A DNA stretch of 64,000 nt, taken from NCBI GenBank assembly GCA_038230075.1, contig JBBRNV010000004.1:6047-70046 (forward strand). Reading direction: 5' to 3'. Of the stretch, positions 10,722 to 56,900 are shown piece after piece. Position 1 is the first letter of the stretch; the number at the start of each line of letters is the position of its first letter. This DNA is from Minisyncoccia bacterium (GTDB lineage: Bacteria > Patescibacteriota > Minisyncoccia > Phycocordibacterales > CALRBL01). Under the pieces are notes generated by a model. That model did not search any database and was not told the origin of the DNA. It saw only the letters and a list, made by a program, of their open reading frames with translations. The position numbers and the translations under genes were made by a program.

Positions 10722-11633
10722 TTAAACTTGTGCTTTATTTTTTATTAAGATATTGATTGCTTTTGTCACAATTGGAAGAATGTCGTTATAGAAATTGAGT
10801 TCAACAATTTCTTCAACTTTAAACCACCGAGCGTCATCGAGTCCTCCACTTTTTTCAAGTGTCACAGGGATGAACTTTGATTTTCCTAAAAAGTACGTTA
10901 CCTGCTTTCGAATTTTTCCATCTTCTGGGTGTGTCGCAATGTATTCATTTCGAGCAAGTTCATCTTCGATCACAATATCAAGATTAATTTCTTCTTTAAT
11001 TTCTCGTTTTGTTCCCTCTTTAATGTCTTCATCTTTTTCAAGTTTTCCTTTTGAAAGAGTCCAGTGACCGAACACATCGTGAACGAAGGCAAGCATGAGT
11101 TGATCTTTGTCCCACGCGTACACAACTGATCCTCCAAGATTTTGAATGGGCATTTGTTCATATGGAACATTTGCGAATTTCTTTTTCTTTGCAGATGTTT
11201 CTTCTTTTCCTGGTTCCCCAAGTTCTTTGTACACCGCACCAAGTACTCCGTTCACGAATTTTCCAGAAGTTTCTCCACCGAATGTTTTTGCAAGTTCAAT
11301 TGCTTCATTAATCGCCACTTTTGCAGGAACTTCTTTTCGATCAGAAAAGAGAAGCTCATAAAGCCCTATTCGAAGAATGTTTCTATCGGTTGTTGAGATT
11401 TTATCAATTGGCCATTCAGGGGCTGCCTTTTCGATGATTTGATCAAGCTCACTTCGTTTTGCCAAAATGTTCTTCGTCAAATCCCGAATAAATGTTACAT
11501 CCCCTACTCCTGGAGCAAATTCTTCAGCGTCACGAGTAATGATCTCATCAATGGTATCGTCGTGTTGACCACGAAAATCCCACTCAAAGAGTGTTTGCAT
11601 GACGATTGACCGAGAGAGATGTCTGTTTGCCAT
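10722..11633 (-). CDS. nusB: NusB antitermination-like domain fused to a C-terminal NUDIX hydrolase domain
   Basis: N-terminal NusB fold (VMQTLFEWDF..., ARxxALQxLy-type helices), C-terminal Nudix box GKLEKDEDIKEGTKREIKEEINL. Confidence 0.75.
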   Translation of the reverse strand: MANRHLSRSIVMQTLFEWDFRGQHDDTIDEIITRDAEEFAPGVGDVTFIRDLTKNILAKRSELDQIIEKAAPEWPIDKISTTDRNILRIGLYELLFSDRKEVPAKVAINEAIELAKTFGGETSGKFVNGVLGAVYKELGEPGKEETSAKKKKFANVPYEQMPIQNLGGSVVYAWDKDQLMLAFVHDVFGHWTLSKGKLEKDEDIKEGTKREIKEEINLDIVIEDELARNEYIATHPEDGKIRKQVTYFLGKSKFIPVTLEKSGGLDDARWFKVEEIVELNFYNDILPIVTKAINILIKNKAQV

Positions 11634-11690
11634 ATCGGTTTAGTTGTAATGGTACATAAAGTCGTTTATTTCCCTGACAAAGGGAGGTGC

Positions 11691-11924
11691 TTACCGTGCA
11701 CCAGCGTCTTTCATGCGTGATTCACGCTTCTTAATTTTCTTGTCTAACTTCTTGTTAACGTCGATAACCTGTCGCCCGGCATACATACCGGTTGTAAGAG
11801 AAACACGGTGCTTCATGTAAAGATCACCTGTTTTCTTGTCTTTAGCTACAGCAGGAGTACCAAGAGCGTGGTGAGCGCGTCTCTGGGCTGTATGAGAACG
11901 TGTGTGTCGCATTCGTACTGTCAT
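11691..11924 (-). CDS. rpmF: 50S ribosomal protein L32 (non-zinc form, C-terminally extended)
   Basis: MRHTRSHTAQRRAHHAL...KHRVSLTTGMYAGRQV matches L32 pattern. Confidence 0.7.
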   Translation of the reverse strand: MTVRMRHTRSHTAQRRAHHALGTPAVAKDKKTGDLYMKHRVSLTTGMYAGRQVIDVNKKLDKKIKKRESRMKDAGAR

Positions 11925-11933
11925 AATGGAGAA

Positions 11934-11962
11934 ACTATAGCCTATAGCGTTTAAAAAGGCAA
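11934..11962 (-). promoter_or_regulatory. candidate sigma70 promoter for rpmF (TTGCCT-N17-TATAGT), -10 ends ~10 nt before ATG (leaderless)
   Basis: hexamers on minus strand read from sequence. Confidence 0.35.
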
Positions 11963-12009
11963 ATCCTTGGGGCTGAACTAAGGTTTAGGGGTTTTAAGCC
12001 ACACAACGG

Positions 12010-12037
12010 TTGACACCGTAAATTCATATGATATGGT
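12010..12037 (+). promoter_or_regulatory. strong candidate promoter TTGACA-N16-TGaTATGGT (extended -10)
   Basis: Perfect -35 plus TGn-extended -10; identical 10-mer ATGATATGGT recurs at 25222-25231. Confidence 0.5.
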
Positions 12038-12043
12038 ATCGAA

Positions 12044-12182
12044 AGCTTTTGGTATTGCTATTGCAAGTGCGACATATGATGACGAGCTTCGGGGCGGATA
12101 CTCCCTCGGATAGTCATTATTGCCACGTGTCAGCATGTCGGTTGAAGGGGCCCGGGATCGCGAGATTCTGGGCCCTTTTCTT
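12044..12182 (+). ncRNA. candidate small RNA (~140 nt) of unknown class between two minus-strand genes
   Basis: Promoter at 12010-12037; GC-richer structured segment; intrinsic terminator 12147-12182 with T-tract on plus strand only; no credible ORF. Confidence 0.3.
12147..12182 (+). terminator. rho-independent terminator (GGGGCCC ... GGGCCC + TTTTCTT)
   Basis: Self-complementary GGGCCC arms with 16-nt loop followed by T-run on plus strand. Confidence 0.6.
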
Positions 12183-12189
12183 ATATGTT

Positions 12190-12909
12190 CTACTTAATAA
12201 AACTCTTTCTGTGCTCAGAGGTGATTCCGTACTTCTTTATAGCTTTAACGTGAAATAATGTTCCATACCCAACATGTGTATCAAAACCATACTTAGGATA
12301 TTTTTTTGCCAATGTATACATTAATGTATCTCGAGTAACTTTCGCTGCAATTGATGCGAGTGCAATCGCAGGCTCTTGTTCGTCCCCTTTTATAATTGAA
12401 ACTTGATTACTAAATTCAGATGGTGCTTTCAGTCTTCCGTCGAGTAACACCGTTGTTGTGTTTATATTCGCCTTAAGTTTTCTTAAGCATTTCTTCATCG
12501 CCTCTTGTATAGAATGAGTTAAGCCACGCGAATCAACTATCGCTGGTTTTGTATGACCAATAGCAAACTTTAAAATTCCTTCTTTCTGCCATCGCTTAAT
12601 TCGGGAAAACCAAATTTCTCGATCTTCGCGTCGTAGCTGTTTCGAGTCTTTTAATCCGACTAATAGTCGACATGTTGCGAGGTCAAACAATTGTGTAGTT
12701 GAAATAAGCACAGCACCAACTGAAACTGGCCCAGCAAATGATCCCCTTCCCACCTCATCAATTCCAATAATAAATTCAGAATCATAATGTGAATCAAAAT
12801 TCATTTCATGTTTTGACTGCTTTTTTCGAGTAGTTTGTAGCTTTCGTGTTGCCGCATATTTTCGAAGGGGCCGCAACTTCTTTTTTCTTTCCATGCGCAT
12901 ATAATACAC
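12190..12909 (-). CDS. rnhB: ribonuclease HII (true start probably the internal Met at 12804)
   Basis: FIIGIDEVGRGSFAGPVSVGAVLI matches RNase HII active-site region; basic N-terminal 35-aa extension overlaps dnaE -10 box and is probably not translated. Confidence 0.85.
   Translation of the reverse strand: MYYMRMERKKKLRPLRKYAATRKLQTTRKKQSKHEMNFDSHYDSEFIIGIDEVGRGSFAGPVSVGAVLISTTQLFDLATCRLLVGLKDSKQLRREDREIWFSRIKRWQKEGILKFAIGHTKPAIVDSRGLTHSIQEAMKKCLRKLKANINTTTVLLDGRLKAPSEFSNQVSIIKGDEQEPAIALASIAAKVTRDTLMYTLAKKYPKYGFDTHVGYGTLFHVKAIKKYGITSEHRKSFIK
12900..12905 (+). promoter_or_regulatory. TATAAT -10 box 7 nt upstream of dnaE ATG (leaderless)
   Basis: consensus hexamer read directly. Confidence 0.35.
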
Positions 12910-12912
12910 GCA

Positions 12913-15900
12913 ATGGCTGAGACTACTCTAAACCCTGCACCCGTCGTTACTTCAGAGTCAATTTCTGAGGCTGTTTCAGTTGCCCAAACTCCAACACCCG
13001 CTTCATTATTTACCCACCTTCATTGTCACAGTCACTACAGCCTCCTTCAAGCACTTCCTCAGATTCCTGATCTTGTTGGATACGCTAAAAAATGTGGCAT
13101 GACCTCTCTCGCACTTACCGACGCTGGAAACATGTATGGAGTAATTGAGTTCTATAAAGAATGTAGGAAAAAGGAAATTAAACCAATTGTTGGTGTCGAC
13201 TTCTATGTCGCTCTTCGCACACGACATGATAGAGAATCTCGAATCGACAACAAACGAACTCGACTCGTACTTCTTGCAAAAAGTCTTGATGGATACAAAA
13301 GCTTAATTAAACTTGTTACTGGTTCAAACCTAGAAGGTTTTTACTATAAAGCTCGAATCGATCAAGAACTTCTCGAACAACATAAAAAAGAGTTGATTTG
13401 CATTGTTCCCTCAATAAGCGGAGATCTTTCACTTGCCATTAAAGGAAAAGATTTTGAAAAAGCAAAACATTTAGCAGATTGGTATAAAGAACAATTTGGC
13501 GATGACTTTTATTTAGAAATTACACACCATCCTGAAATTGAAGGCCACGAAGAACACATGAAGCGATCAATTGCATTTGCTCGAGAAAATAATGTGCAAC
13601 TAGTTGCTGCGCACGACACATACTATCTTGACCCAGAAGATAAACGAGCTCGAGATACACTTGTATCAATTCAAAATGAATACACCGAAAGATCACATGG
13701 AGGAGATCCAAGTGATTGGTCATTTATTTCAAAGGAAAAAGCTGGAGAACTATTTATAAACGAACAAGATGCGTTGCTAAATGTTGGAAAGATTGTTGAG
13801 AAATGTAATCTCGATCTTCCACTTGGTGTATGGCTCTTCCCTGAATTTACTATTGCAAGTGGAAAACATGCAGATGACGAACTTCGAGATATTGTGTTTG
13901 ATGGAATGAAACGAAGAAAAATCGAACCGACACCAGAGGTACTTGAACGTGTTGAGTATGAACTTCGTGTCATTAAAGACAAAGGCTATGCTCCTTACTT
14001 TCTTGTGGTAGGAGACCTTCTCCGAGAAGCTCATGAAAAAAATATTCTTACCACCATTCGAGGTTCGGTTGCTGGTTCAATGGTGACCTTCTTAGCCCAC
14101 ATTACAAACGTTAATCCAATGGAATACATGCTTCCTTTTGAACGATTTCTGAATCCTGACCGACCATCAGCACCTGACATCGACATGGACTATGCCGATA
14201 ATCGTCGAGACGAAATTATTCAATACGCGAGACAAAAATACGGAACCGATAAGGTGGCACAAATTGGAACATTCGGAACAATGATGGCACGAGGAGCTGT
14301 TCGAGATACTGCTCGGGCATTAGGATATCCATACACCGTTGGAGATCGCATTGCAAAAATGATTCCCATGGGTTCACAAGGTTTTCCTATGACCTTAAAA
14401 AAGGCAATGGAAATTACTCCAGAACTTCAAGAAGCATATGAATCTGACGAAGAGGTAAAAGAAGTTATCGATATGGCTAAAAAAATCGAAGGATGTGCTC
14501 GACACATTTCGGTTCACGCAGCTGGTGTGGTTATTTCACCGATCCCCTTAAGTGATATCGTTCCAACACAATTTGACCCAAAAGGCGAAGGAAAAATTAT
14601 CACACAATATGACATGCACTCCGTTGATGAAAACAGTGCAGGTCTTTTAAAGTTCGACTTTCTTGGAATTCGAAACCTATCAATTCTTGCTGATGCAGTG
14701 CGACTCGTAAAAGAACAACTCGATATTGTCGTTGATATTGAAAATGTAAAAATTGATGACAAAAAAACATTTGAAATGCTTGCGCGTGGTGAAACAACAG
14801 GCCTCTTTCAACTAAACGGAGATGGAATGACGAGAGCGTTGATGGAACTAAAGCCAACAAGTATTCACGATATTAATGTGATGGTAGCTTTGTATCGACC
14901 GGGTCCTATGGCAACGATTGAAGAATATATCGCTCGAAAAAATGGAAAGCATAAAACAACGTTTTATCATCCAAAAATGAAAAAATTCTTGGAACGAACC
15001 TTTGGACTTCTTGTGTATCAAGACGACCTTCTTTATACCGCCATTGAACTTGCTGGATATGACTGGGGGTCAGTAGATAAATTCCGAAAAGCTGTGGGAA
15101 AAAAGATTCCTGAAGAAATGGCAAAGCAGCACAAAATTTTCGTTGATGGTTGTCAGAAGTTTAGTGGAATGTCTGAAAAAGATGCCGAAAAAATTTGGAC
15201 GCTATTTGAACCATTCCAAGGATACGGATTCAACAAAGCACATGCGGCAAGTTATGGAAAAGTGGCGTATCAAACTGCCTTCATGAAAGCCAACTTCCCC
15301 GCTCTCTATATGTCAGCAGTGCTCACCGCTGAATCAGGAAACATCGAAGAAATTGGAACCAACATTACCGAATGTAAGCGAATGGGAATTCCTGTACTTC
15401 CTCCATCAATTAATGAAAGTTTCAAAGGTTTTACCGTGGTTAAAGTGGTAAATCCTGATCTTGAAGCAAACCCAGATGCGTCAAAAGAAGTTGACGCTAT
15501 TCGATTCGGACTCGTTACCATTAAAAACTTCGGTGAAGGAATTGCGGAAGTTGTTATCAAAGAACGAGAAGAACACGGAAAGTTTGTGTCGCTTGAGAGT
15601 TTTTTGAAACGAGTTAGAGATCGAAGTTTAAATAAAAAATCTGTTGAATCACTTATTAAAGCAGGAGCTCTTGATGAATTCGGAGAGCGAGGAGTATTGC
15701 TTCACAATCTTGAGCTCATTCTTCATTTTAATAAAGAAGCAGCTCACATGCCTGAACACTCAGAGACACTATTCGGAGGAATTGCTGAGGCTGAAGTTTC
15801 TGCCAAGCTTGTATTAGAAGATGCACCGAAGGCATCGAGTGAAGATGTTTTGTTGTGGGAAAAAGAATTACTCGGTTTGTACATTTCAGGTCATCCTCTC

Positions 15901-39031: not shown

Positions 39032-39355
39032 TTATTTTTGATTTTTTGAAGGGAACGTGTCTAAAATTTCTTTGGGCAACCTCTGTACAACATCTCTTGG
39101 TAAATCTTCACGATATGTTACTTGAATTTCTTTCTTATTCCCCATTACGATAAAAAAACTTGCCGCGATAAGAAGAACACCCGCTCCTACAATAAAAATT
39201 TGAGCGGTTGTTTCGCTACTCATCAAACCACTTTTAACAAACCACGTAACTAACGTACTTTTTTGAGAACCTCTTTGATATGTATCACCATACGCTTGCC
39301 TTGTCTCTTCAATAAATTCAATATCGCTCATTGCCATTAAGTATATCATCATTAA
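39032..39355 (-). CDS. hypothetical single-pass membrane protein (ORF track extends to 39463; shorter start chosen to avoid 85-nt overlap with divergent kinase gene)
   Basis: one TM helix (IFIVGAGVLLIAASFFIVMG); internal Met codons at 39355/39337. Confidence 0.35.
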   Translation of the reverse strand, partial: LMMIYLMAMSDIEFIEETRQAYGDTYQRGSQKSTLVTWFVKSGLMSSETTAQIFIVGAGVLLIAASFFIVMGNKKEIQVTYREDLPRDVVQRLPKEILDTFPSKNQK

Positions 39356-39377
39356 AAGTTCATGATAATATGTACGT

Positions 39378-40430
39378 ATGTCTATTTTTAATCGAATGTT
39401 TGGTGGAAACGGAAGCGCTTCTGGCGCTGATTTTAATCTCGATTGTCTTTCTATTGGAGACACAGTCGTTGATGCATTTATTCGTCTTCAAGTTGCTGAA
39501 GAGTTGGTAGACGTTGAACACCACCGCGACATGCTTTGCATGACATTCGCTGACAAAATACCTTATGAATTTGCTGAAGTAATTCCCGGTGTTGGAAATA
39601 GCGCTAATGCCGCAGTTGCTCTTGGAAGACTGGGTCTCTCATCTGGAATCTACACCAATGTTGGAGACGATATGTATGGACAAGATTGTATTAAGAATTT
39701 CAAAGATAATCACGTATCAACAGACTTCGTTGTGGTGAATAAGGGAATGAAGACAAACTACCATTACGTATTGTGGTTCAAAAATGAACGAACAATTTTA
39801 ATTAAACACTTCGAGTATCCGTATGTCTTTCCTAAACAAACTAATCCTCGATACATCTACTTAAGTTCTCTTGGGCCAACATCTCTCGACATGCATCGCC
39901 AAATCGCTGACTTCATGAAGTCACATCCAGAAACAAAACTAGTATTTCAACCTGGAACATTTCAAATTAAATTAGGAAAAGATCAGCTTAAAGATATTTA
40001 TGCATGTACAGAAATCTTTTTCTGTAACAAAGAAGAGGCTGGAAAAATATTAGGAACAGACGCAATTGCTGGAGCTGATAATATAAAAAAATTAATGAGT
40101 GACCTTCGTGGTCTTGGACCAAAAGTCGTTGTTGTAACCGATGGACCAGCTGGTGCATATGCATCTAATGGAACAGAGAATCTTTTTGCACCACCGTATC
40201 CTGATCCAAAAGAGCCTTACGAACGAACTGGTGCAGGAGATGCATTTGCTTCAACATTTACTGGAGCATTAATGAAAGGAAAGACATTGAAGGAAGCTTT
40301 ACAGTGGGGGTCTGTTAACTCTATGTCAGTTGTGCAAGATATTGGTGCACAACGAGGCCTTCTTCCACAAGATAAAATTGAGCAGTTTATTAAAACTGCA
40401 CCTGTAGGTTGGATCGTTACGGAAATTTAA
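39378..40430 (+). CDS. PfkB-family carbohydrate kinase (ribokinase-like)
   Basis: N-terminal GGxxxN(A)AxxxxRLG-type motif and C-terminal DTxGAGD-like ERTGAGDAF. Confidence 0.8.
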   Translation: MSIFNRMFGGNGSASGADFNLDCLSIGDTVVDAFIRLQVAEELVDVEHHRDMLCMTFADKIPYEFAEVIPGVGNSANAAVALGRLGLSSGIYTNVGDDMYGQDCIKNFKDNHVSTDFVVVNKGMKTNYHYVLWFKNERTILIKHFEYPYVFPKQTNPRYIYLSSLGPTSLDMHRQIADFMKSHPETKLVFQPGTFQIKLGKDQLKDIYACTEIFFCNKEEAGKILGTDAIAGADNIKKLMSDLRGLGPKVVVVTDGPAGAYASNGTENLFAPPYPDPKEPYERTGAGDAFASTFTGALMKGKTLKEALQWGSVNSMSVVQDIGAQRGLLPQDKIEQFIKTAPVGWIVTEI

Positions 40431-40449: not shown

Positions 40450-41454
40450 CTATCTACTAATTACTTTCTTCGCAGCTTCTACAATGTGGGAAACTCCCAT
40501 GCCAAAGTGTTCGATCAATTCATCTGGAGTTCCTGATTGTCCGAAGACATCTTTCACCCCAATAAATTCTATAGGCACTGGCATAGTTTGTGACAAACAT
40601 TCAGCAACGGCTGATCCCATTCCCCCTGCAATCTGATGTTCCTCTACCGTGACTACTTTTGGTGCTTTTTGAACACATGTCAAAATTGTTTTTGCATCAA
40701 GTGGTTTAATCGTTGAAAGATTCAGAATGATTGAACCGATGTTTTCTTGTTCCAGCATATTTGCAGCTTGAAGTGCTTTGTGAACTAATGCCCCCGTTGC
40801 AATAATAGTAACCTGTGGTTTTTCTGATTCGAAAAAGACCTCAGCCTTCCCTATTTCAAAAGGAGTTTCTTCAGTAGTGATGATGGGTGTTTTTTCTCGA
40901 GCTAGTCGAATATAGGTTGGTGCATCAGTTTTAGAAAGTGCCATCGTTGCTTTTCGTGCTTCAATGGCATCACAAGGAGAGATAACTACCATTCGAGGAA
41001 TGACTCGTGTGATTGCAATGTCTTCAATTGCTTGATGTGTTCCTCCATCTGGGCCAACTGAGACTCCAGCATGTGATCCTGCAATTTTTACTGGCACATT
41101 ATTGTATGCGATGGTTGTTCGAATTTGTTCCCAGTTTCTTCCCGGAGAAAACATTGCATACGATGCGATAAAAGGAACTTTTCCCATTGCTGCCATTCCA
41201 GATGCAACAGATGCCATATTTTGTTCACCAATTCCTATTTCAATAAATCGATCCGGAAACATTTCTTTAAACAAAGAAATCTTCGAAGAATCGGTAAGAT
41301 CTGCACACAGCGCAACGATATTGTTATTATCTTTTGCAGCATCACGAAGACCTTCTCCGAATCCTTGTCTGATTGGAACTTGTTCAACATCTTTGTCGAA
41401 TATTTTTTTATTTAAAGAATGATGAAGTGACATATTATTTATCTTTGTTTTCAT
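40450..41454 (-). CDS. transketolase, C-terminal section (pyrimidine-binding and C-terminal domains)
   Basis: FIEIGIGEQNMASVASGMA motif, 334 aa. Confidence 0.85.
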   Translation of the reverse strand: MKTKINNMSLHHSLNKKIFDKDVEQVPIRQGFGEGLRDAAKDNNNIVALCADLTDSSKISLFKEMFPDRFIEIGIGEQNMASVASGMAAMGKVPFIASYAMFSPGRNWEQIRTTIAYNNVPVKIAGSHAGVSVGPDGGTHQAIEDIAITRVIPRMVVISPCDAIEARKATMALSKTDAPTYIRLAREKTPIITTEETPFEIGKAEVFFESEKPQVTIIATGALVHKALQAANMLEQENIGSIILNLSTIKPLDAKTILTCVQKAPKVVTVEEHQIAGGMGSAVAECLSQTMPVPIEFIGVKDVFGQSGTPDELIEHFGMGVSHIVEAAKKVISR

Positions 41455-41716
41455 AAACTGGCTTATGACTATACTTTACGCCTGCTTTTACGACTTCTGA
41501 GAATCCTTCTTCGAGAATCTTTACCATCTCTGTTAAATCATAAGCGTCGCTTGTTGTTTTAAATGCTTCAACTTTTTTCGCAGCATCTTCAGTATCTTTT
41601 AGAAAAGCATCGCTTTCAATTTTTATTTGTTCTGAAACACGTTTTAGATCAGCAATTGCTTGAGTGATTTCTTTATCTTCACGTTCGTCAGAAGTGTGAG
41701 TTTTAATAGTTGTCAT
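41435..41716 (-). CDS. hypothetical acidic 93-aa protein, translationally coupled to transketolase C-terminal gene (20-nt overlap)
   Basis: ORF only; helical, no domain. Confidence 0.45.
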   Translation of the reverse strand: MTTIKTHTSDEREDKEITQAIADLKRVSEQIKIESDAFLKDTEDAAKKVEAFKTTSDAYDLTEMVKILEEGFSEVVKAGVKYSHKPVYENKDK

Positions 41717-41730
41717 GTTTTTATTATATA

Positions 41731-43977
41731 TTATGCGGCTTTTGCGAGTTCTGCATTCCTTGCAGCTCTTTCTTTAACGGCTTTTTCTTCTTGTGCAACG
41801 ACAAAATCTTTTTGTGGTCTAAATACTTCTTGAATAGTAGTTATTCTATCTGACACAATTCGTTTGTAGTCTTGATCTGATATTGGTTTACCACCAACAA
41901 CCATCATTTCATTCATTTCTTCAGGAAGTCTTCTGATTACATTGTTTGCTGTTCTCATATCTACACCCGTCACAAGCTTCTTTTTTTCTATAGACCAAAG
42001 AATCTTATTAACTACTCGTAGTTGTATTCGTAGTTGACCATTCAAAAACTGTGTCATTACTCTTTGAGCTCGCGGCGATTCAATTTCTTTTAATCTACTA
42101 ATTCGTAACCGAAGTGAATCTATCTCACTCCGTTCTGCTTGTAACAAATCATATGCAGCAGCTGCCATTTTAGGACCATCACCCCCAAGTCTTTCTTCGA
42201 TTAACTTAAAGCGACGGTCTCCCTCTGTTGTAATCTTTTTCCAAACTTCTACTTCAACATTAACAGGGAGTGTCTCAACAAAAGATTCTGTTCCTAATTC
42301 ACGCAACAATTCTGTTGGCATTGGAATAATTTTTCGCTCACCAGGAACAGAAGGACCCGCCGTTGATGGTCCTGAACCTGGGAATGGAATAATGACTGAA
42401 TGCAGAGTTTCAGGAACCACTTCTGTTTCTATTTCTGTAGGAATTTCTTCTGCAAGAATCGGTACAATTTCTTCAGTAGTTAGAGGATCACTCTCAGTTG
42501 TAGTTGACGTAGTTGATATTTCTTCGTTCACAACAACAGGAGCTTCAGGAGCTGAAGTTATAACTGGTCGCTCATTTGTATACTGGGCTTTTAATTCTTG
42601 CCACTTTCGAGTTTTTCCATCAACCTTTCGAATTTTTGTATTTGCCTTATCGAGAACTTTTTGCTGTGTAGCTAAATTCTTTTGTGCATCTTTAAGCGCA
42701 GCTTTTGCTTCTTTGAGTGCAGCTTTCATTTGAACTTTTTGATCTTTCGAAATCAAATTTTTAAGAGCAAGCATTTTCTCTAGTCCATCAATAGTTTCTG
42801 AATGTTCAGCAACCGTTTTTGCATGAGTATCTACCGCTTGTGTAAGATGTTCTTTACTTTCAACCAATTCTGCGTATCCCTTCCCCGCTCTCATGTGTTC
42901 AATCTTTCCGTTGAAACGAGCTGCCATTTTTTGATCAATCGCATCAACAACCGCTTCGAATTTGGCGGCTTGTTGTTCTGTAAGTGCAAGCGCTGCAACA
43001 TGTGTATCTTTTACTGCTTCAATTTTTCGTATTCTACTTTCAAGTTTCATTTCTCTAATTTCATACTGACTAACCAACTGATCTCTCAACTTTCTAAGTG
43101 CAGGAGATGTTGGATTTTCTCCAAGTGTTCCAATGACTCTCTGCTTCTCAGCTTCAAATTTAGCTTTCTCTTGATTTTGTTGATGAGTTAATACTTCAAT
43201 ATCTGCCTTGTGTTGTGTGATCGCTTGTTTTTGACCAAGCAAATCTTTAACAGCAGAACGTCGCTCACCTCCAAACATTTTAGTTCTAAAATTATCCCAT
43301 TTTAATCTTATTGCGCTTTCTGCCTTCCTACTTTCTGCTGGAATTATGTCGGGCACTTCAATATCTGTAGCAATTACTGCGTCTGGTGTTGTTGTTGGAG
43401 TTTCTACCGCAACAAGAGGAATAGGAATAGCGGCTTCATGTATTACTGGAATGGGAACTTCAGCATCAGGGGTTGGTATCTCTGCTTCAGGAATTTCTGC
43501 AGCAGGAGGAGGAGTTTCGAGGATATCAGAAACTGGAGCAACCTCAACGATGGGAGTTTCGGGCGGCAATTCAGAGATAGCAGGAGGAACTTCAGCAACT
43601 GGGGTGTTGGGTACTTCAACAAGAGGAATTTCCGAAACAGCCTCAGATGCTGCCACATCTGGAGTTGGTGGAAATGCAGCATATAGAGTATCCGCAAAAG
43701 TGTCTTCTGATTTCAAATCTTCATTTGGAACCTCTGCGGCAACTTCTGATGGGATTTCCACAGAAACAGGATTTAGAACAATTTTTGCTTCAAATGCAGC
43801 TTTCTCAGCAGTCTCAGCAGTCTCAGCAGCCACTGCATCTGCAGCTCTCTGTTGTTCATTAACTAATTCATTCATAGCAATAACTTGAGGATGTTCTATA
43901 GGCTCAGGAACTACCACCTCTCCCGTTGAATCTGGAGGCAATACTGTGTCATTTAAATTTTTTGGAATATTACTCAT
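41731..43977 (-). CDS. large (748 aa) Pro/Glu/Val-rich repetitive, coiled-coil protein of unknown function
   Basis: N-terminal ~200 aa of (E/A)(V/I)P repeats, central coiled coil, C-terminal globular region; overlaps tkt N gene by 8 nt. Confidence 0.6.
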   Translation of the reverse strand: MSNIPKNLNDTVLPPDSTGEVVVPEPIEHPQVIAMNELVNEQQRAADAVAAETAETAEKAAFEAKIVLNPVSVEIPSEVAAEVPNEDLKSEDTFADTLYAAFPPTPDVAASEAVSEIPLVEVPNTPVAEVPPAISELPPETPIVEVAPVSDILETPPPAAEIPEAEIPTPDAEVPIPVIHEAAIPIPLVAVETPTTTPDAVIATDIEVPDIIPAESRKAESAIRLKWDNFRTKMFGGERRSAVKDLLGQKQAITQHKADIEVLTHQQNQEKAKFEAEKQRVIGTLGENPTSPALRKLRDQLVSQYEIREMKLESRIRKIEAVKDTHVAALALTEQQAAKFEAVVDAIDQKMAARFNGKIEHMRAGKGYAELVESKEHLTQAVDTHAKTVAEHSETIDGLEKMLALKNLISKDQKVQMKAALKEAKAALKDAQKNLATQQKVLDKANTKIRKVDGKTRKWQELKAQYTNERPVITSAPEAPVVVNEEISTTSTTTESDPLTTEEIVPILAEEIPTEIETEVVPETLHSVIIPFPGSGPSTAGPSVPGERKIIPMPTELLRELGTESFVETLPVNVEVEVWKKITTEGDRRFKLIEERLGGDGPKMAAAAYDLLQAERSEIDSLRLRISRLKEIESPRAQRVMTQFLNGQLRIQLRVVNKILWSIEKKKLVTGVDMRTANNVIRRLPEEMNEMMVVGGKPISDQDYKRIVSDRITTIQEVFRPQKDFVVAQEEKAVKERAARNAELAKAA

Positions 43978-44863
43978 GTTCGCTAGTTATTTTACCTTGT
44001 AATGTTCGAAGTTCATTTAATGCCATTATCGCCTGATCTTTACTCGGCGGATTTCCATGCCAATATGGTTTTCGTTCAAATTCATGTACCCCTTTTCCAG
44101 GAATGGTGTGAGCCAAGATAACAACCGGACGATTAAATATTTCTTTGGCCTCTTCAACTGCATTAATAATATCAGTAAAATTGTGTCCATTCACTTCAAT
44201 GACATACCAATTAAATGCGTGCCATTTTTCGTATAATGATTCAAGTGGCATTACATCTTCAGTGAATCCATCAATTTGAATATTGTTTCGATCAACAATT
44301 GCAATTAAATTTCCAAGTTTTTCTTTTCCTGCGAGCATAATGGCTTCCCAATTTTGTCCTTCATTTAATTCTCCATCTCCAAGGAAACAATAGATAAATT
44401 TTCCTGACATTTCTTCAGGATCTTTTTGCGCTTTAGTTTTTTCTCTAATGTCGATTCTATCAGCGAGCGCCATGCCAACTGCTTGTGAGAGCCCTGACCC
44501 AAGCGGACCTGAACTTGTTTCTAAAAATGGAAGCCATTCTCGATGAGGATGCCCTTGAAGACGTGATCCGAACTTTCGAAGTGTCTTTAATTCCTCAACT
44601 GGAAAATATCCAGCATGCGCAAGTGTTGCGTATAAAACAGGGCAGATGTGTCCATTTGAAAGAACGAGTCGATCGCGCTCATCCCACATTGGATTCTTTG
44701 GATCATGTTTTAAAATATGAAAATAGAATGCCGTGAAAATATCTGCCATGCCGAGAGGTCCTGCAGTATGACCTGATCCTGCAGTAACAAGCATTTCAAT
44801 TATTGATTCACGAATATCATTCGCTTTTTGTTCAAGAAACTTTGTATCAGCCTGGGCTATCAT
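43970..44863 (-). CDS. transketolase, N-terminal section (thiamine-diphosphate-binding)
   Basis: GSGHTAGPLGMADI, GDGELNEGQ motifs. Confidence 0.85.
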   Translation of the reverse strand: MIAQADTKFLEQKANDIRESIIEMLVTAGSGHTAGPLGMADIFTAFYFHILKHDPKNPMWDERDRLVLSNGHICPVLYATLAHAGYFPVEELKTLRKFGSRLQGHPHREWLPFLETSSGPLGSGLSQAVGMALADRIDIREKTKAQKDPEEMSGKFIYCFLGDGELNEGQNWEAIMLAGKEKLGNLIAIVDRNNIQIDGFTEDVMPLESLYEKWHAFNWYVIEVNGHNFTDIINAVEEAKEIFNRPVVILAHTIPGKGVHEFERKPYWHGNPPSKDQAIMALNELRTLQGKITSEHE

Positions 44864-44902: not shown

Positions 44903-45664
44903 TTATTTCTCTTTTTTGATCGTTGCTCGTTCAGCTCTCCACGCTTCAATGTCTTTATGATTCCCCGACAATAAAACCGGAGGAACTTTATAGTTCTTTC
45001 CTTTAAATTTCAAAATTTCAGGACGAGTATACACTTCCTTACTTGCCGATCTGTCTTCTTCAAGTGATTCAATGTTTCCAAGCACACCTTCACACTTTCT
45101 TGCCATCGTATCGATAATGATAAGTGCAGGAAGTTCTCCACCTGTTAATACGAAAGGTCCAATTGAAACTTCGACTGCTTTCAAAATAGAAACTACTCGC
45201 GCATCTACTCCTTCGTATCGTCCACAGATAATAACAATGTCGGTATATGTTGAGACAAATGTTTTCGCGACACTTGTTGTAAATTGTTCACCACCAGGAG
45301 AAAGAAAAATGGTTAGTGCTTTTCTTTTTGTTTTCCCTTTTCCAATCTTTGAAAGAATTTTGTCATGTGCTTTTAAGATTGGTTCTGCTTGCATAACCAT
45401 TCCAGGACCTCCTCCATATGGTTTATCGTCAATTCGTAAATAAGGCTTTTCTCTTCCTTTCTGATTTTTTGTTGGCTTTACAAAACTTCGAGGATTATAA
45501 AATGAAACATCGATAATCTTTTGATCGATAGCTCGTTTTATAATTGATTCCTCTAAATAGGAATCAAAGACATTGGGAAAAAGCGTAATCACATGAAAGT
45601 GAAGTTGGGTTTTTGTGGTAAGCACTTTTTTCTTTAGAGAATTTTTTATTGAAACTTTTTTCAT
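44903..45664 (-). CDS. trmD: tRNA (guanine37-N1)-methyltransferase
   Basis: KPYGGGPGMVM SPOUT knot motif; N-terminal ~20-aa extension. Confidence 0.85.
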   Translation of the reverse strand: MKKVSIKNSLKKKVLTTKTQLHFHVITLFPNVFDSYLEESIIKRAIDQKIIDVSFYNPRSFVKPTKNQKGREKPYLRIDDKPYGGGPGMVMQAEPILKAHDKILSKIGKGKTKRKALTIFLSPGGEQFTTSVAKTFVSTYTDIVIICGRYEGVDARVVSILKAVEVSIGPFVLTGGELPALIIIDTMARKCEGVLGNIESLEEDRSASKEVYTRPEILKFKGKNYKVPPVLLSGNHKDIEAWRAERATIKKEK

Positions 45665-45687
45665 TTCTATATATGTATGCTGATACT

Positions 45688-45730
45688 ACACAAAGCAAAG
45701 GGGCGCCGCAACGAATAGTCGGGCGCCCCT
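45688..45730 (-). terminator. rho-independent terminator on minus strand immediately upstream of trmD (ends the GC-rich island transcript)
   Basis: GGGGCGCC(G)-N11-(C)GGCGCCCC hairpin followed by TTTGCTTTGT on minus strand. Confidence 0.6.
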
Positions 45731-45753
45731 CAGGATTCGAAGTGGTATTTGAG

Positions 45754-46143
45754 TCAGGCATGAAAAGCCATATCGAAACTCAAACTCTTCGGTCGTATGA
45801 CCGGAATGCGACAGTCCTCCGGTGGTGGGTCAACCAGAAAAATCTCTCGGGCTGAATACAACAATGCCTCAGACAGAGCAATGCCAACCTCGTTGAGGAT
45901 GACATCGCTTGGAACTTCACGCCGCCGATCACGAGTAAACTCACAAGCGGTGGTAAAGGCCCGATTCGGCGAGAGTAATCCACTTGACTCCACCTCTTGG
46001 AAAAGGAGTAAGCGTACTTTGAGTACGCAATCAGCGCAACTCTCGACGTCGCGCCAACTGACCTCAATGACGTTCACCACACCGAGACAGAGGTTCTCAA
46101 TACCCACAAAGGTGAAACCACGATATTTAACATTTCGATTCAT
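45754..46143 (-). CDS. dubious ORF (129 aa) in 50% GC island; faint RimM C-terminal (PRC-barrel)-like pattern; possibly non-coding
   Basis: G/C-ending codon usage unlike host genes; stop codon 2 codons upstream of ATG; overlapping plus-strand ORF. Confidence 0.2.
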   Translation of the reverse strand: MNRNVKYRGFTFVGIENLCLGVVNVIEVSWRDVESCADCVLKVRLLLFQEVESSGLLSPNRAFTTACEFTRDRRREVPSDVILNEVGIALSEALLYSAREIFLVDPPPEDCRIPVIRPKSLSFDMAFHA

Positions 46144-46238
46144 TTTTTAGGAGCTGGGTTGATGATTGGCTACGAACTGAAGTTCTGGAGACCATTTGGT
46201 TCCAATCGAACTATGCCACAGTTATAGTTTAAAGTAAA

Positions 46239-46278
46239 TATAAAAACGAAAGGGTCCGACATTCACATGTCGGACTCC
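46239..46278 (-). terminator. rho-independent terminator on minus strand after ORF 46300-46650
   Basis: GTCCGACA-tgtgaa-TGTCGGAC hairpin followed by CCTTTCGTTTTTAT. Confidence 0.65.
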
Positions 46279-46299
46279 CTTGTCGATACAGATAGCAAC

Positions 46300-46650
46300 T
46301 CAGAACAATCCAAGTCGAGCAGGTGCTTGCACCTCTTGAATGTTGCGCACGAAAACCAAGCTCGCAGTTTCCATCGTATCCCGCAAGATCTCGATCAAAA
46401 CCTTTGTGATGACATCCGTTGCGGCGCGATCTAAAAAAGCATGTGCTTCATCGTCAATCCCAGCAGTTGCGCTCGTGAAGAGATCAGCGACGTGTCGAAC
46501 TTTTTTTAGTCCCTCAAAAAACAAAAGCCGAGAGCAGAAACGCACAAGTTGTTTGTTGAGACGACAACTTGCATGAACCATGCTCACTTTTCCAAGCTGT
46601 AACGCTCGAATTTCTTCGATATTGAATATGATGTTTGTGCAATGTTTCAT
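46300..46650 (-). CDS. hypothetical 116-aa protein in GC-elevated island (uncertain)
   Basis: ORF with mixed codon usage, bracketed by terminators at 46731-46775 and 46239-46278. Confidence 0.3.
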   Translation of the reverse strand: MKHCTNIIFNIEEIRALQLGKVSMVHASCRLNKQLVRFCSRLLFFEGLKKVRHVADLFTSATAGIDDEAHAFLDRAATDVITKVLIEILRDTMETASLVFVRNIQEVQAPARLGLF

Positions 46651-46730
46651 TGATAAAAATCTAAGATTTGGCTGTAATCACCAGAATGGTAATTTAAGCT
46701 CTGCCAAGAACATAGCATATTAGTAGATAA

Positions 46731-46775
46731 AAATAAAAAGCAGAGTCTACCTAACAGACTCTGCTTTTTATTTTT
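46731..46775. terminator. bidirectional terminator ending the rpsP-KH operon
   Basis: AAAAAGCAGAGTCT-acctaac-AGACTCTGCTTTTT. Confidence 0.7.
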
Positions 46776-46777
46776 AT

Positions 46778-47092
46778 CTAGATCTTCAAATCATCTAATG
46801 CTTCATCAACACTTTTTGTTGTTGATGACGGAGCTGCTCCTCCTTCAGGTTCATTAATCTTCAAATTGATTCGAGCGTTGTTTTTCATTCCAACAACTCG
46901 CAGAAGTGTTCTTATAGCTTTTGCGGTATTTCCCTCTCGTCCGATTATTTTACCCATATCCGCCTGGTCTACCACAAGAGTCATCAGAACTCCCATTTCA
47001 TCAACAGATCGAGTGATTTTCACTTTTTCTGGCTGATCAACCAATGCTTTAACGATGTAATCTAAAAACTGTGTGTCTTGATCTTGCTGCAT
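46778..47092 (-). CDS. KH-domain RNA-binding protein (YlqC/UPF0109-like)
   Basis: KIIGREGNTAKAIRTLL KH motif; canonical position after rpsP. Confidence 0.8.
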   Translation of the reverse strand: MQQDQDTQFLDYIVKALVDQPEKVKITRSVDEMGVLMTLVVDQADMGKIIGREGNTAKAIRTLLRVVGMKNNARINLKINEPEGGAAPSSTTKSVDEALDDLKI

Positions 47093-47206: not shown

Positions 47207-47647
47207 TTATACTGTTGGAGTTTCTTCTGCAGGAGCGGCTTGGGCTGCTGGAGCTTCAACAACTTCAGGAGTAGGTACTGCAACGGGTGTAACAACCTCA
47301 ACTGGTGCGACAACTTCAGGTGCTGCTGCAGGTGCAGCTACTACTTCTACCGGAGCTACTTCTTCTTTCTTTGGAACTGTTTTCTTTGGAAGAACATTTA
47401 CTTTCTTTCCTGTAATAATTTTTTGTGACAATAGTAAGTTGTGAAGAGTTCCTGATGCCTTTGCTCCAACTGAAAGCCAGTGCTTAACTCGGTCAGCTTT
47501 GATCTGAGTTGTTTCCTTTCGTGGATCATATGAGCCAAGAACTTCTAAAAACTTTCCACTTTTTGAGCTGTTTTTTGAATCAGTCAAAACAACACGAAAT
47601 GTAGTTTCGTGCTTTCGTCCTGTTCGTTGTAGTCGAATTGATAACAT
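47207..47647 (-). CDS. rpsP: 30S ribosomal protein S16 with Ala/Pro/Glu/Val-rich C-terminal extension
   Basis: MLSIRLQRTGRKHETTFRVV... canonical S16 N-terminus. Confidence 0.85.
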   Translation of the reverse strand: MLSIRLQRTGRKHETTFRVVLTDSKNSSKSGKFLEVLGSYDPRKETTQIKADRVKHWLSVGAKASGTLHNLLLSQKIITGKKVNVLPKKTVPKKEEVAPVEVVAAPAAAPEVVAPVEVVTPVAVPTPEVVEAPAAQAAPAEETPTV

Positions 47648-47755: not shown

Positions 47756-49711
47756 ATGCGAACAGGAATAATGACAATCACCGCCAAAGGTGTCGGTTAT
47801 CTAAAGAATCCACTATTTGAAGAAGACTGGGAAATTGCTCCTGAGCTTTTAAATTGTGCCCTTCATGGAGACGAAGTTGAAGCTGATGAATATCCCCGAT
47901 CAGCTGGAAATACTTTTGCAAATAGTATGTCTTCAAAAACTCAAGCCAAAGTATTAGGAGTAACGAAACGAGCAAAAACTCATTTTGTAGGAACAATCGA
48001 AGAAGACAACGGAAAAGCATTTCTCGTTCCTGACGATAAACGAATGTATGTTGATTTGTTAATTCAAAAAGAAGAAACCATGGGAGCAACTCACGGCACT
48101 AAAGTGTTTGTTGAAATGAAACCATGGACAGATTCTAAACAGAATCCTCAAGGAGTCGTAAAGAAAATTATTGGAGAAAAAGGAAACAATGATGCCGAAA
48201 TGGAATCAATCGTACTTGAACGAGGATTCGATACCGACTTCCCTCCCGAAGTTCTTCACGAAGCACATCTCACAGAACTAAACGAACGAGCTATTCTTCC
48301 TCATGAAGTAGCAAAGCGTCGAGATATGCGTGGAACATTTACTGCAACAATTGACCCATTTGACGCAAAAGACTTTGATGATGCACTTTCAATCAAAAAA
48401 ATTAACGATGACTTGTATGAAATCGGTATTCACATTGCCGACGTATCTCACTATGTTCGTGAAGGAACATCACTCGACAAAGAAGCTCGTAAGCGTGCTT
48501 TTTCTGTATATCTTGTTGATCGAACAATTCCCATGCTTCCACATGTTCTTTCGAACGATGTTTGTAGTTTGAATCCACACGAAGACAAGTTAACTTTTTC
48601 TGCGGTGTTTGAGATGACAGTCAAAGGAGAAATTAAAAATAAGTGGTTTGGAAGAACAGTCATTCATTCTGATAAACGATTTAGTTATGAAGAGGCTCAA
48701 GATGTTCTTAACAATAAAGGAAATGGAGAAGGTGCCGAATTTTTTGAAAAAATGAACTGGTTTAACACCATCGCTTATGCTCTTCGAGACGAAAAAACAA
48801 AAAATGGAGCAATTGATTTTGAAACAACTGAAATTAAATTTAAACTCGATGAAACCGGAAAGCCTATCGAAGTTATAAAGAAAGAAAGATTAGACACTCA
48901 CCGATTAGTTGAAGAATTTATGCTTCTTGCAAACCGAGAGGTTGCTGAGTTTATTTTCAGAGGAGTAGAAAACAATAATAAAGGAAAAGGTTCACATCTC
49001 GGCGTATATCGAATTCACGATGTGCCTGATCATGAAAAACTGGCAGAACTTTCACTCTTTTTGAAAGCACTCGGATATGATCTTGATACTAAAAAAGACA
49101 TCACTCCTAAAGATATTCAAAAGCTATTAAAGCAAGTTGAAGGAGATCCAAACGAAGCACTTATCAAAACAGCAACAATTCGATCAATGGCAAAAGCGGT
49201 CTACTCAACACGAAACATTGGTCACTTTGGTTTAGCCTTCACATATTACACTCACTTCACTTCCCCTATTCGACGATATCCCGATCTTGCAGTTCACCGA
49301 ATTCTTCAAGAGGTGCTTCATGGAAAAATAATGACCGATCGAGAAGCGGCCCTTTACACTCGAATTTGTTTAGAATCATCTGAACAAGAAGTGAAAGCAG
49401 CAGAAGCAGAACGAGCATCAATTAAATACAAACAAGTAGAATACATGATTCCACGACTTGGACAGGTATTTTCTGGAAAGATTTCTGGGGTAACTGAGTG
49501 GGGTCTCTATGTTCAAGAAGAAACAACAATGGCAGACGGCATGATTAAACTTCGAGATCTGAAAGATGACTTCTATTCATTTGATCAAAAGTCATACTCA
49601 ATCATTGGTCAACAGAAAAAGAAAAAATATACACTCGGTGATCCAATCAAATTTAAAATTATGGCGGCAGACCTCGAACGAAAAACTCTTGATTGTGTCT
49701 TGGCTGAATAA
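47756..49711 (+). CDS. rnr: ribonuclease R / RNase II-family 3'-5' exoribonuclease
   Basis: RNB domain (ATIDPFDAKDFDDALS, YSVYLVDRTIPMLP), C-terminal S1 domain. Confidence 0.9.
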   Translation: MRTGIMTITAKGVGYLKNPLFEEDWEIAPELLNCALHGDEVEADEYPRSAGNTFANSMSSKTQAKVLGVTKRAKTHFVGTIEEDNGKAFLVPDDKRMYVDLLIQKEETMGATHGTKVFVEMKPWTDSKQNPQGVVKKIIGEKGNNDAEMESIVLERGFDTDFPPEVLHEAHLTELNERAILPHEVAKRRDMRGTFTATIDPFDAKDFDDALSIKKINDDLYEIGIHIADVSHYVREGTSLDKEARKRAFSVYLVDRTIPMLPHVLSNDVCSLNPHEDKLTFSAVFEMTVKGEIKNKWFGRTVIHSDKRFSYEEAQDVLNNKGNGEGAEFFEKMNWFNTIAYALRDEKTKNGAIDFETTEIKFKLDETGKPIEVIKKERLDTHRLVEEFMLLANREVAEFIFRGVENNNKGKGSHLGVYRIHDVPDHEKLAELSLFLKALGYDLDTKKDITPKDIQKLLKQVEGDPNEALIKTATIRSMAKAVYSTRNIGHFGLAFTYYTHFTSPIRRYPDLAVHRILQEVLHGKIMTDREAALYTRICLESSEQEVKAAEAERASIKYKQVEYMIPRLGQVFSGKISGVTEWGLYVQEETTMADGMIKLRDLKDDFYSFDQKSYSIIGQQKKKKYTLGDPIKFKIMAADLERKTLDCVLAE

Positions 49712-49724
49712 ATCTCAGTAGTAT

Positions 49725-49760
49725 TAAATAAAATGAAACGCCCCGATTTTATTCGGGGCG
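49725..49760 (-). terminator. rho-independent terminator after GC-rich ORF 49780-50304 (minus strand)
   Basis: CGCCCCG-aataaaa-CGGGGCG followed by TTTCATTTTATTT on minus strand. Confidence 0.6.
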
Positions 49761-49779
49761 CTGGTGGAGAATACCACCA

Positions 49780-50304
49780 TCATTCTGCGACTGGGTCGCC
49801 ATCGAGATCGATCACTTGCTTACTATACTTTTCAGCAAGTGTGATGACCTGAAGAACCAGTTCTGAGTTCCTCGCGTCAGGCATGATCAGCACACCTGAA
49901 GTTTTTCTAATGATCACGTCGTGAACCTTTTCACGAGCTCCCGTGAGCCATGTCGGCAAACGTGAATGACCACGACGCGTCTGATTGTTTGCGAACTCCA
50001 TCGAACCTAGCGCGTTGAAGAATGGTCGCATGTCGAGCACGTACATGGTTTGGCGAAGATGTTCCAATACATTTGCGTACATAACCTCATCTGCCAAAGG
50101 AAGGATGCAATCTTGGTGACACATTTGAACCTCACCGTAGAGGGCAAAGAGTCGTTTTTCGGGAGCCGCGCGCAGCATTGCGCTTACCAGACTCGTCGCG
50201 ACCGGCATAAGATGCTGAGGTTCGCGGGCGGCAGCCAACAGTGTTTGAAATTGATCCGACCAAAACTGATTGATGTGTGTGGTAAGAACTGGAACTAAAC
50301 TCAT
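49780..50304 (-). CDS. hypothetical 174-aa protein encoded in a ~50% GC island (candidate horizontally acquired ORFan)
   Basis: ORF with G/C-rich codon usage, own promoter-like TTGACT-N16-TAGACT upstream and own terminator. Confidence 0.5.
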   Translation of the reverse strand: MSLVPVLTTHINQFWSDQFQTLLAAAREPQHLMPVATSLVSAMLRAAPEKRLFALYGEVQMCHQDCILPLADEVMYANVLEHLRQTMYVLDMRPFFNALGSMEFANNQTRRGHSRLPTWLTGAREKVHDVIIRKTSGVLIMPDARNSELVLQVITLAEKYSKQVIDLDGDPVAE

Positions 50305-50413
50305 TTGAGGTGGTGATATCTCCGGTGTGGGGTTAACTGAACGTAGAGCTATGGAACTTCTAACAACTAGTCTATCTATATTTACATCTTAGTCAAAAAA
50401 GAAATAACTGATG

Positions 50414-56516: not shown

Positions 56517-56517
56517 A

Positions 56518-56900
56518 AAGCTTCTGAGTCTATAAGCCGAATTCTGTAATCATATTCGTTTCCAAATATGATCGGAACGTATTTATCTGTGTTGTGTATT
56601 ACTACACACATCAAGCGGCACTCTCTCTTTTTTACTTTCGCAAAAAAGAGAGTACGGCCTTGCACAGAAGTAAGGATTTTGCCGTTTCACTTTCACCTTT
56701 CGATGAAATTCATCATATCTTACGATACGATGCAGTTGGCTTTCGCCTTCTGCGTCACTGCTCGCACCTCTTGGATTACCCAGACGGGCGTTACCCGCTA
56801 CTTGTGTCTCTCACATTTCTGTAAAAGACTCTGTGTTCGGACTTTCCTCCCCTTCACATTACACGTGGTTATGTGAAAGAGCACGTACCCAACTCAGGTC
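56518..56900 (-). ncRNA. rnpB: RNase P RNA, bacterial type A
   Basis: On minus strand: GGGGAGGAAAGTCCGAACACAGAG (P4 5' strand), GGGTAACGCCCG, AGAAGGCGAAAGCC, and ACAGAATTCGGCTTATAG (P4 3' strand ACAGAAnnCGGCUUA); P1 pairing CCTGAGT/ACTCAG. Confidence 0.85.

Follow-up and report, generated by a model that had tools for sequence, protein, structure and literature searches.

Two orphan genes between the halves of a split transketolase: probable lineage-specific passengers in a permissive operon slot

Split transketolase operons, found in the candidate phyla radiation (CPR)/Patescibacteria, Firmicutes, Bacteroidota and archaea, carry the enzyme as two half-genes on one strand, tktN (PF00456) and tktC (PF02779 and PF02780), which typically stand 1–30 nucleotides (nt) apart. 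The 64,000-nt stretch of DNA considered here (the window; part of contig JBBRNV010000004.1 of a Minisyncoccia bacterium) has the same half-genes in the same order and on the same strand, whereas its halves lie 2,535 bp apart, with two open reading frames (ORFs) inside the interval, one of 748 and one of 93 amino acids (aa). On the ORF map of the window tktN, the 748-aa ORF, the 93-aa ORF and tktC run head to tail, all on the minus strand (Table 1), and the coordinates and Pfam assignments agree with an original prediction that the halves are here split by two genes in a row of four minus-strand ORFs. No description of a split transketolase with intervening genes was found in the literature. 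We suggest that the inserted pair is probably a lineage-specific orphan passenger in a permissive slot of the operon: both ORFs carry a host-like coding signal, neither protein has a recognisable relative, the pair is absent from related genomes, and the same spacer holds diverse other cargo elsewhere.

Table 1 Coordinates of the features of the trmD–tkt region of the window and, in the last three rows, of the retroelement found between the transketolase halves of locus L059
Feature	Position	Strand	Evidence or remark
GC-rich hairpin GGGGCGCC...GGCGCCCC then TTTGCTTTG	45691..45730	-	Sequence reading; 3'-terminal hairpin in minimum-free-energy fold
trmD (tRNA m1G37 methyltransferase)	44903..45664	-	PF01746 E=3.6e-36
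tktN, N-terminal thiamine-diphosphate-binding half of split transketolase	43970..44863	-	297 aa, intact, PF00456 E=2e-66
Overlap ATGAGTAA of tktN end and 748-aa ORF start	43970..43977	-	8 nt
748-aa ORF	41731-43977	-	Pfam: no match
748-aa protein, residues 1-215, acidic disordered arm	43333..43977	-	Composition; codon score 0.375; predicted local distance difference test (pLDDT) mostly <50
748-aa protein, residues 216-470, basic helical region, charge +15	42568..43332	-	AlphaFold2, pLDDT 70-90
748-aa protein, residues 471-545, second acidic disordered linker, Pro/Thr/Glu-rich, net charge -13	42343..42567	-	Composition, AlphaFold2
748-aa protein, residues 546-748 and stop, helical C-terminal region	41731..42342	-	Low-confidence model; codon score 0.235
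93-aa ORF, acidic orphan	41435-41716	-	Pfam: no match
tktC, pyrimidine-binding and C-terminal half	40450..41433	-	327 aa from Met8; PF02779 E=2e-37, PF02780 E=4e-31
Terminator-like hairpin, candidate unit end	40382..40399	-	Consensus scan; 50 nt past tktC, within 3' end of convergent pfkB
L059 retroelement, reverse transcriptase	12652-13650		PF00078
L059 retroelement, bAvd-like protein (minus strand)	12234-12581		
L059 retroelement, target gene	11044-11730		C-terminus resembles downstream template-like repeat ~12068-12250

Neither transketolase half is truncated, and both keep their motifs. The NCBIfam transketolase model NF004559 gives 284 bits with TktN and 314 bits with TktC, the two halves being matched end to end, and the sum of 598 bits lies above the cut-off of 488. 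The TktN translation carries the cofactor motif GDGELNEG...DRNN (GDG...NN type), and its C-terminus, ...SEHE before the stop, is kept in relatives. The best TktN matches come from Paceibacteria/Parcubacteria-type metagenome-assembled genomes (MAGs), at up to 80% identity; judged from sequence, the source organism is an ultra-small CPR bacterium of the Paceibacteria/Parcubacteria type. As the independent Logan assembly of SRR19962015 shows the same arrangement at 100% identity, the arrangement is not peculiar to one assembly.

The four genes are packed with almost no space between them. The start codon of the 748-aa ORF sits within the last codons and the stop of tktN, and its ATG arises from a CAT (His) codon, at which loci L082 and L083 have CAC. 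This 8-nt overlap and the 14-nt gap between the 748-aa and 93-aa ORFs are as first described. A 20-nt overlap had also been proposed between the 93-aa ORF and tktC, which holds only if the longest-ORF start of tktC, at 41454, is used. The start at Met8 (41433), which gives TAAtATG and a 1-nt gap after the 93-aa ORF, is favoured by the aligned TktC N-termini of relatives and by an independent gene call in L001.

The coding signal of the inserted ORFs was measured with a codon log-likelihood model trained on 25 long ORFs of the window. In the annotated frame the 748-aa ORF scores 0.304 and the 93-aa ORF 0.318 (host genes, 0.306 ± 0.069), the remaining five frames of both score lower, and the score across four sub-regions of the 748-aa ORF ranges from 0.235 to 0.375. 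The GC content at third codon positions (GC3) is 0.21 and 0.19 respectively, against 0.26 in host genes. Because their codon usage is host-like, both ORFs are taken to be real genes. Two GC-rich ORFs about 1 kb upstream score −0.15 and −0.02; foreign-looking DNA is therefore distinguishable here, and the 748/93 pair is not of that kind.

Both inserted proteins are complete orphans. Scans with Pfam, NCBIfam, PHROGs and PADLOC produced no match below E=0.01 for the two proteins, their sub-regions or the opposite-strand ORFs, and neither protein had a PHROG or PADLOC match below E=0.02. No relatives of the pair were found by a PDB sequence search or by scans of JGI metagenomes and IMG/VR. A word-indexed search of 5.8 billion clusters returned each protein itself only, as did an exhaustive phmmer search of the 209 C-terminal residues of the larger one (540–748) against 1.84 billion representatives, and in a cluster look-up both proteins are singletons. 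Searched with Foldseek against PDB and BFVD, the 748-aa model gave generic long-helix matches only (template modelling (TM) score ≤ 0.17), and the 93-aa model gave no fold match.

Conservation of the intervening genes in related genomes had been proposed as a check of their significance, and the pair is conserved in none: no homologue of either protein was found in the relatives' loci. Of the two findings that were together to refute the original reading, only one is thus seen: the ORFs are absent from all relatives, yet codon periodicity is present. Of the ten closest relatives examined, nine have 1–28 nt between tktN and tktC, and the tenth, L092, has a gene of the dehydroquinate (DHQ)-synthase family between the halves. 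The loci nearest by TktN (L082–L088 and L091) share the order gatB-gap-rpiB-rpe-tktN-tktC-DUF1653-pfkB(-)-fba-L25-SLT, with the tkt halves 1–20 nt apart. The window retains tktC, pfkB(-), L25 and SLT of this sugar-phosphate cluster, and rpiB, rpe, gap and fba are not near its tkt genes. Its upstream order is RNase R(-), S16, KH, a GC-rich island, trmD and tktN, so that, compared with the relatives' cluster, trmD stands in place of the upstream rpiB and rpe, and fba is missing.

A wider comparison covered 75 related loci with both halves, in which a junction was called interrupted when at least 250 bp of other genes lay between tktN and tktC. The halves are essentially adjacent in 55 (median gap 7 nt) and interrupted in 20, including 17 of the 68 CPR loci. 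The premise that split halves are normally adjacent is consequently true for only about 73–75% of related species. An insertion into the operon, as first proposed, is supported, while its rarity was overstated, since other genes lie between the halves in 20 of the 75 loci. The cargo of these 20 loci comprises 33 proteins in 26 unrelated BLAST families, among them Gp49 plus HTH and ParE toxin–antitoxin pairs, 23S-rRNA-IVS four-helix proteins, a glyoxalase-fold protein, an MFS transporter, a tRNA-binding domain protein, DUF1653 and numerous small membrane orphans. Like the pair in the window, other Paceibacteria-type cargo occupies the same slot in the orientation of the flanking genes, and it is mostly small, tightly packed, and lineage-specific or of unknown function. 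In contrast to the window, none of it is homologous to the 748/93 pair or encodes a large disordered/helical protein, and most of it measures 0.3–1.2 kb, with only the retroelement cassette of L059 (2.7 kb) comparable to the insert in size.

Interruptions affect the neighbouring junctions of the cluster as well: 10 of 60 loci have one at rpe–tktN, and 8 of 58 at rpiB–rpe. The idea that the tktN–tktC junction is a special insertion hotspot was dropped, as its interruption rate (27%) is not significantly above that of its neighbours (14–17%; Fisher p=0.06–0.2). The tktN–tktC spacer is permissive, as are several other slots, and not unique.

Some of the cargo deserves description in its own right. 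Between tktN and tktC the Vogelbacteria MAG L059 carries a complete diversity-generating retroelement (DGR; 10822-13629), whose parts are listed in Table 1. Homologous vWA-domain proteins of 450–552 aa stand between the tkt halves of three Chitinophagales (Bacteroidota) genomes (L073, 10791-13840; L075, 5692-7044; L079, 1994-3379), a conserved interruption of split tkt in another phylum. The gene in L092 (4269-5285), where TktN is 76% identical to that of the window, belongs to the 3-dehydroquinate-synthase family (PF01761 and PF24621). As sedoheptulose 7-phosphate, which transketolase produces, can serve as a substrate for sugar-phosphate cyclases of this family, the L092 cargo may be metabolically linked to the enzyme. 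A small predicted membrane protein (71–188 aa) directly follows tktN in 9 of the 17 interrupted CPR loci (L009, L010, L016, L018, L026, L029, L033, L047 and L051). Detectable homology among the nine is limited to L026 and L033, and they could form a fast-evolving small family linked to tktN.

The architecture of the inserted proteins fits their original description as Pro/Glu/Val-rich (748 aa) and acidic (93 aa). Residues 1–215 of the larger protein contain 16% Pro, 15% Ala, 14% Glu and 13% Val, with a net charge of −37, and the net charge of the smaller protein is −5. The N-terminal arm contains degenerate (A/P)EVP-type repeats, and slippage-type DNA repeats occur in the ORF, one of 9 nt three times in tandem (AETAETAE) and one of 21 nt twice. 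In single-sequence AlphaFold2 models, with a mean pLDDT of 54 for the 748-aa and 72 for the 93-aa protein, the larger protein has long helices at residues 214–287, 292–364, 367–404 and 411–469, and the smaller one a long helix (10–58) and a short one (61–78). Structure prediction had been recommended for the C-terminal part of the former and for the latter; both are helical in the models, the C-terminal part at low confidence. Four long helices are predicted over residues 214–469, but the label 'coiled coil' is unproven, because the hydrophobic heptad periodicity of the helices does not rise above that of shuffled sequences: power at period 3.5 comes near the 95% shuffle level only in helices 367–404 and 411–469, and is absent in 214–364. 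The 748-aa protein has no signal peptide and no transmembrane stretch (maximum 19-residue hydropathy 1.44), and is presumably a very acidic cytoplasmic protein.

Long charged helices or Pro/Glu-rich entropic linkers are found in DivIVA/FilP-type coiled-coil proteins, the TonB Pro-Glu region and titin PEVK. The 748-aa protein can be likened to these by architecture only; it has no sequence, profile or fold match to them, and membership is not claimed.

A similar composition is found in the ribosomal protein S16 of the window (47207-47400), which has a Pro/Glu/Val/Ala-rich C-terminal tail of about 60 aa whose richest 40-residue stretch is 95% P/E/V/A; S16 of L089 (14-451) has a shorter Ala/Pro/Glu-rich tail. 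The composition of the S16 tail is like that of the disordered arm of the 748-aa protein, yet there is no DNA similarity, and no paralogue or DNA source for the Pro/Glu/Val/Ala region was found elsewhere in the window, the S16 tail included.

How the pair is expressed has to be read from the layout of the genes. The stop of trmD lies 39 nt upstream of tktN, and trmD, which also precedes tkt in the relative L089, would be the first gene of the transcription unit. The successive spacings of trmD, tktN, the 748-aa ORF, the 93-aa ORF and tktC are 39, −8, 14 and 1 nt. The hairpin upstream of trmD is likely to be a terminator that closes the preceding GC-rich island, and so to mark the upstream boundary of the unit. 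From tktN to tktC a scan of the minus strand found no convincing terminator, the internal matches being weak, short-stemmed and within coding sequence (44420-44402 and 40614-40601). Co-transcription from trmD to tktC with translational coupling, which the original prediction took to be implied for the tkt genes and the pair, is plausible given the shared strand, the spacings and the lack of a convincing terminator. A Shine–Dalgarno-like 4-mer occurs upstream of only 3 of the 40 window genes of at least 150 aa, and translation initiation in the host appears largely independent of such motifs; with motifs this rare, stop/start proximity is the likely mechanism of coupling.

We therefore picture the locus, conditionally, as follows. 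The pair, as host-adapted protein-coding genes, fills the otherwise tiny spacer between the transketolase halves, would most likely be transcribed by read-through from the trmD–tktN promoter region, and would be translated by stop/start coupling at ATGAGTAA, across the 14-nt spacer and at TAAtATG. With such an arrangement a single mRNA would still yield both tkt halves. The large protein may consist of two disordered acidic arms around long basic helices, followed by a helical C-terminal region, with the small protein as its helical, hairpin-like partner. The most likely role would be structural or scaffolding, by self-association, with no bearing on transketolase catalysis. The slot is one of several in a conserved gap-rpiB-rpe-tktN-tktC-pfkB-fba cluster in which different lineages have placed different genes.

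Several points weigh against this account. Co-transcription and coupling are deduced from spacing alone, and the rarity of Shine–Dalgarno sites in the genome makes the start codons uncertain. That the genes fit together exactly, with no spacer, might also be due to selection for co-expression with transketolase. The scaffold role was guessed from the composition and a low-confidence model (mean pLDDT 54). Lastly, pairs of a large and a small orphan protein in L089 (651 and 111 aa) and L090 (1458 and 95 aa) hint at an association at the level of the clade, which a random-passenger model does not predict.

These pairs lead to the alternative that survives best, albeit as an unlikely one: the 748/93 pair may be a fast-diverged orthologue of the 651/111 pair of L089, an older clade module within the trmD–tkt string, in which case the order in the window would stem from a local swap of tktN and the pair rather than from a new insertion. 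Common to the window and L089 is the derived order RNase R(-), S16, KH, trmD, ..., tktN, tktC, pfkB(-), which was found in 0 of 80 species-representative loci. Within this string each has a large no-Pfam helical/disordered protein followed by a helical protein of about 100 aa. In L089 these are a 651-aa protein, with long helices and a Pro-rich linker, and a 111-aa helical protein; they lie between trmD and tktN, with tktN and tktC 16 nt apart, so that in the shared trmD-to-tktC string the two orphan pairs are on opposite sides of tktN. Identity of L089 to the window is 77% for TktN, 74% for TktC, 62% for TrmD, 75% for S16 and 70% for KH, and with housekeeping proteins at just 62–77% disordered or helical proteins might have diverged until no similarity could be recognised. 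L090 and the Logan contig of the window stem from one sample; the pfkB of L090 is 70% identical to that of the window, and L090 shares with the window a pilin-like gene and a small membrane protein ahead of L25. Its tktN and tktC are adjacent, and the genes upstream of them encode a disordered/helical orphan of 1458 aa, an acidic helical orphan of 95 aa and two proteins that look secreted.

The pairs of L089 and L090 resemble that of the window: each has, next to tkt, a large protein without a Pfam match, in which long charged helices are combined with disordered Pro-rich stretches, and directly after it a helical protein of about 100 aa. They differ in lying upstream of tktN, in domain order and in having no detectable sequence similarity. 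In BLASTP comparisons of the pairs the large proteins gave E≥0.13, and the small ones did not align at all. Smith–Waterman scores of the small proteins and C-terminal regions are within the range of shuffles, and the best score of the helical regions, 78, is below the 84 obtained with an SMC coiled coil from the same window, which is unrelated. Whereas the 748-aa protein has its disordered arm at the N-terminus, the Pro-rich linker of the 651-aa protein is internal. Orthology with the L089 and L090 pairs was thus set aside as unsupported by BLASTP, the Smith–Waterman shuffles or the SMC control, and on the sequence evidence the resemblance of the three pairs appears to be architectural only.

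The original prediction had also raised the possibility that the pair is functionally tied to transketolase, for instance as a scaffold or assembly factor that joins the half-enzymes or tethers enzymes of the pentose-phosphate pathway. The start and stop codons that overlap or nearly abut both tkt halves speak for such a tie, as does the pairing of a large with a small orphan next to tkt in L089 and L090, the closest loci by gene order and neighbour-gene identity. Those pairs, however, lie outside the tktN–tktC interval, a homologue of either protein occurs in 0 relatives, so that there is no conserved co-occurrence with the tkt halves, about 75% of related species, the closest among them, have the halves side by side with no gene inserted, and the cargo between them in other genomes is functionally miscellaneous. 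With relatives lacking the pair and cargo elsewhere unrelated, the tie is unsupported and seems very unlikely. Much the same doubt attaches to a broader version, in which the 748/93, 651/111 and 1458/95 pairs would be forms of one fast-evolving sub-clade module tied to split tkt, acting as scaffold or assembly partner of the two-piece enzyme or of the pentose-phosphate cluster; were it true, the window would hold the most intimate form of the module, wedged between the halves and translationally coupled to both. Only one element might prove more interesting than a passenger pair: the recurrence, next to tkt in the closest relatives, of a large orphan paired with a small one.

There is little to recommend the pair as a recently acquired mobile or viral cassette. 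Mobile-type cargo is found at the same slot elsewhere (Gp49/HTH, ParE toxin–antitoxin, the DGR and 23S-IVS), and the 6-nt sequence TAATAT is present at both edges of the insert (43967-43972 and 41432-41437), a possible microhomology or target duplication. This last is weak evidence, because three of the six bases are the TAA stop codon at both edges. In codon usage and GC3 the pair fully resembles the host, which the GC-rich island 1 kb away does not; moreover, the insert has no integrase, transposase, inverted terminal repeat or long direct repeat, and no PHROG, PADLOC, IMG/VR or BFVD relatives.

An origin in place, by de novo emergence and repeat expansion from the spacer, is similarly improbable. 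The total orphan status would fit it, as would the low-complexity disordered sequence that makes up about 40% of the large protein, the slippage-type repeats (9-nt ×3, 21-nt ×2 and degenerate (A/P)EVP units) and the occurrence of Pro/Glu/Val/Ala composition in the S16 tail as well. The ancestral spacer, however, is just 1–28 nt in relatives with adjacent halves, the large protein has some 460 non-repetitive helical residues, and 748 codons with host-level codon adaptation in every sub-region are far above the typical size of a de novo gene. That both ORFs are open by chance, within a decayed pseudogene or a long stretch of non-coding spacer, as the lack of homologues and a 180-aa shadow ORF on the opposite strand (43346-43888) might suggest, can hardly be entertained, given host-like in-frame scores in all four sub-regions and in the 93-aa ORF with the five other frames lower, a 2.2-kb open frame that is very unlikely by chance at 38% GC, the prediction of both ORFs by independent gene callers, and opposite-strand ORFs that have no Pfam match and fall within low-complexity antisense sequence.

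If the passenger reading is true, the two genes are ordinary lineage-specific orphans riding in a conserved, constitutively needed operon, and they counsel caution, in that tight packing and start/stop overlap with enzyme genes do not alone imply shared function. In these reduced genomes, roughly one species in four tolerates inserts between the halves of a split essential enzyme, the longest of about 2.7 kb, and co-expression of the halves therefore does not require adjacency.

Several other features of the window were noted. The GC-rich island between the KH-domain gene and trmD (45665-46777) is 1.1 kb long, with a GC content of 0.45–0.50 against 0.38 for the genome, and is absent in L089, where KH and trmD are 45 nt apart. 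It contains two singleton ORFs of non-host codon usage, of 116 aa (score −0.02) and 129 aa (−0.15), each followed by a strong hairpin and a T-run (46254-46275 and 45691-45730). No Pfam or Rfam family matched the island, the RNA fold z-score of 45690-46300 on the minus strand is −3.8, and the island may be either foreign DNA or novel structured RNAs. Directly after the stop of the KH-domain gene lies a perfect 25-bp AT-rich palindrome (46725-46779), probably a bidirectional terminator, which yields spurious matches to microRNA families of Rfam. A second GC-rich island (49701-50380, GC 0.50) is located between RNase R and lepA; neither it nor its 174-aa ORF (49780-50304; non-host codon score −0.01, GC3 0.50) has a Pfam or Rfam match.

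A divergent bacterial class A RNase P RNA lies on the minus strand at 56517-56898 and matches the full model (1–367) at 87.6 bits (E=3.5e-25), below the Rfam gathering score of 100, and was hence missed at threshold. A 102-aa plus-strand ORF within it (56568-56876; codon score −0.30) is spurious. Downstream of the tkt genes, a 143-aa minus-strand ORF (39032-39463) overlaps the start of pfkB by 86 nt. Its homologue in L090 has 108 aa (E=6e-21), and because the alignment begins only at residue 38, an internal Met is probably the true start, with which the overlap with pfkB vanishes.

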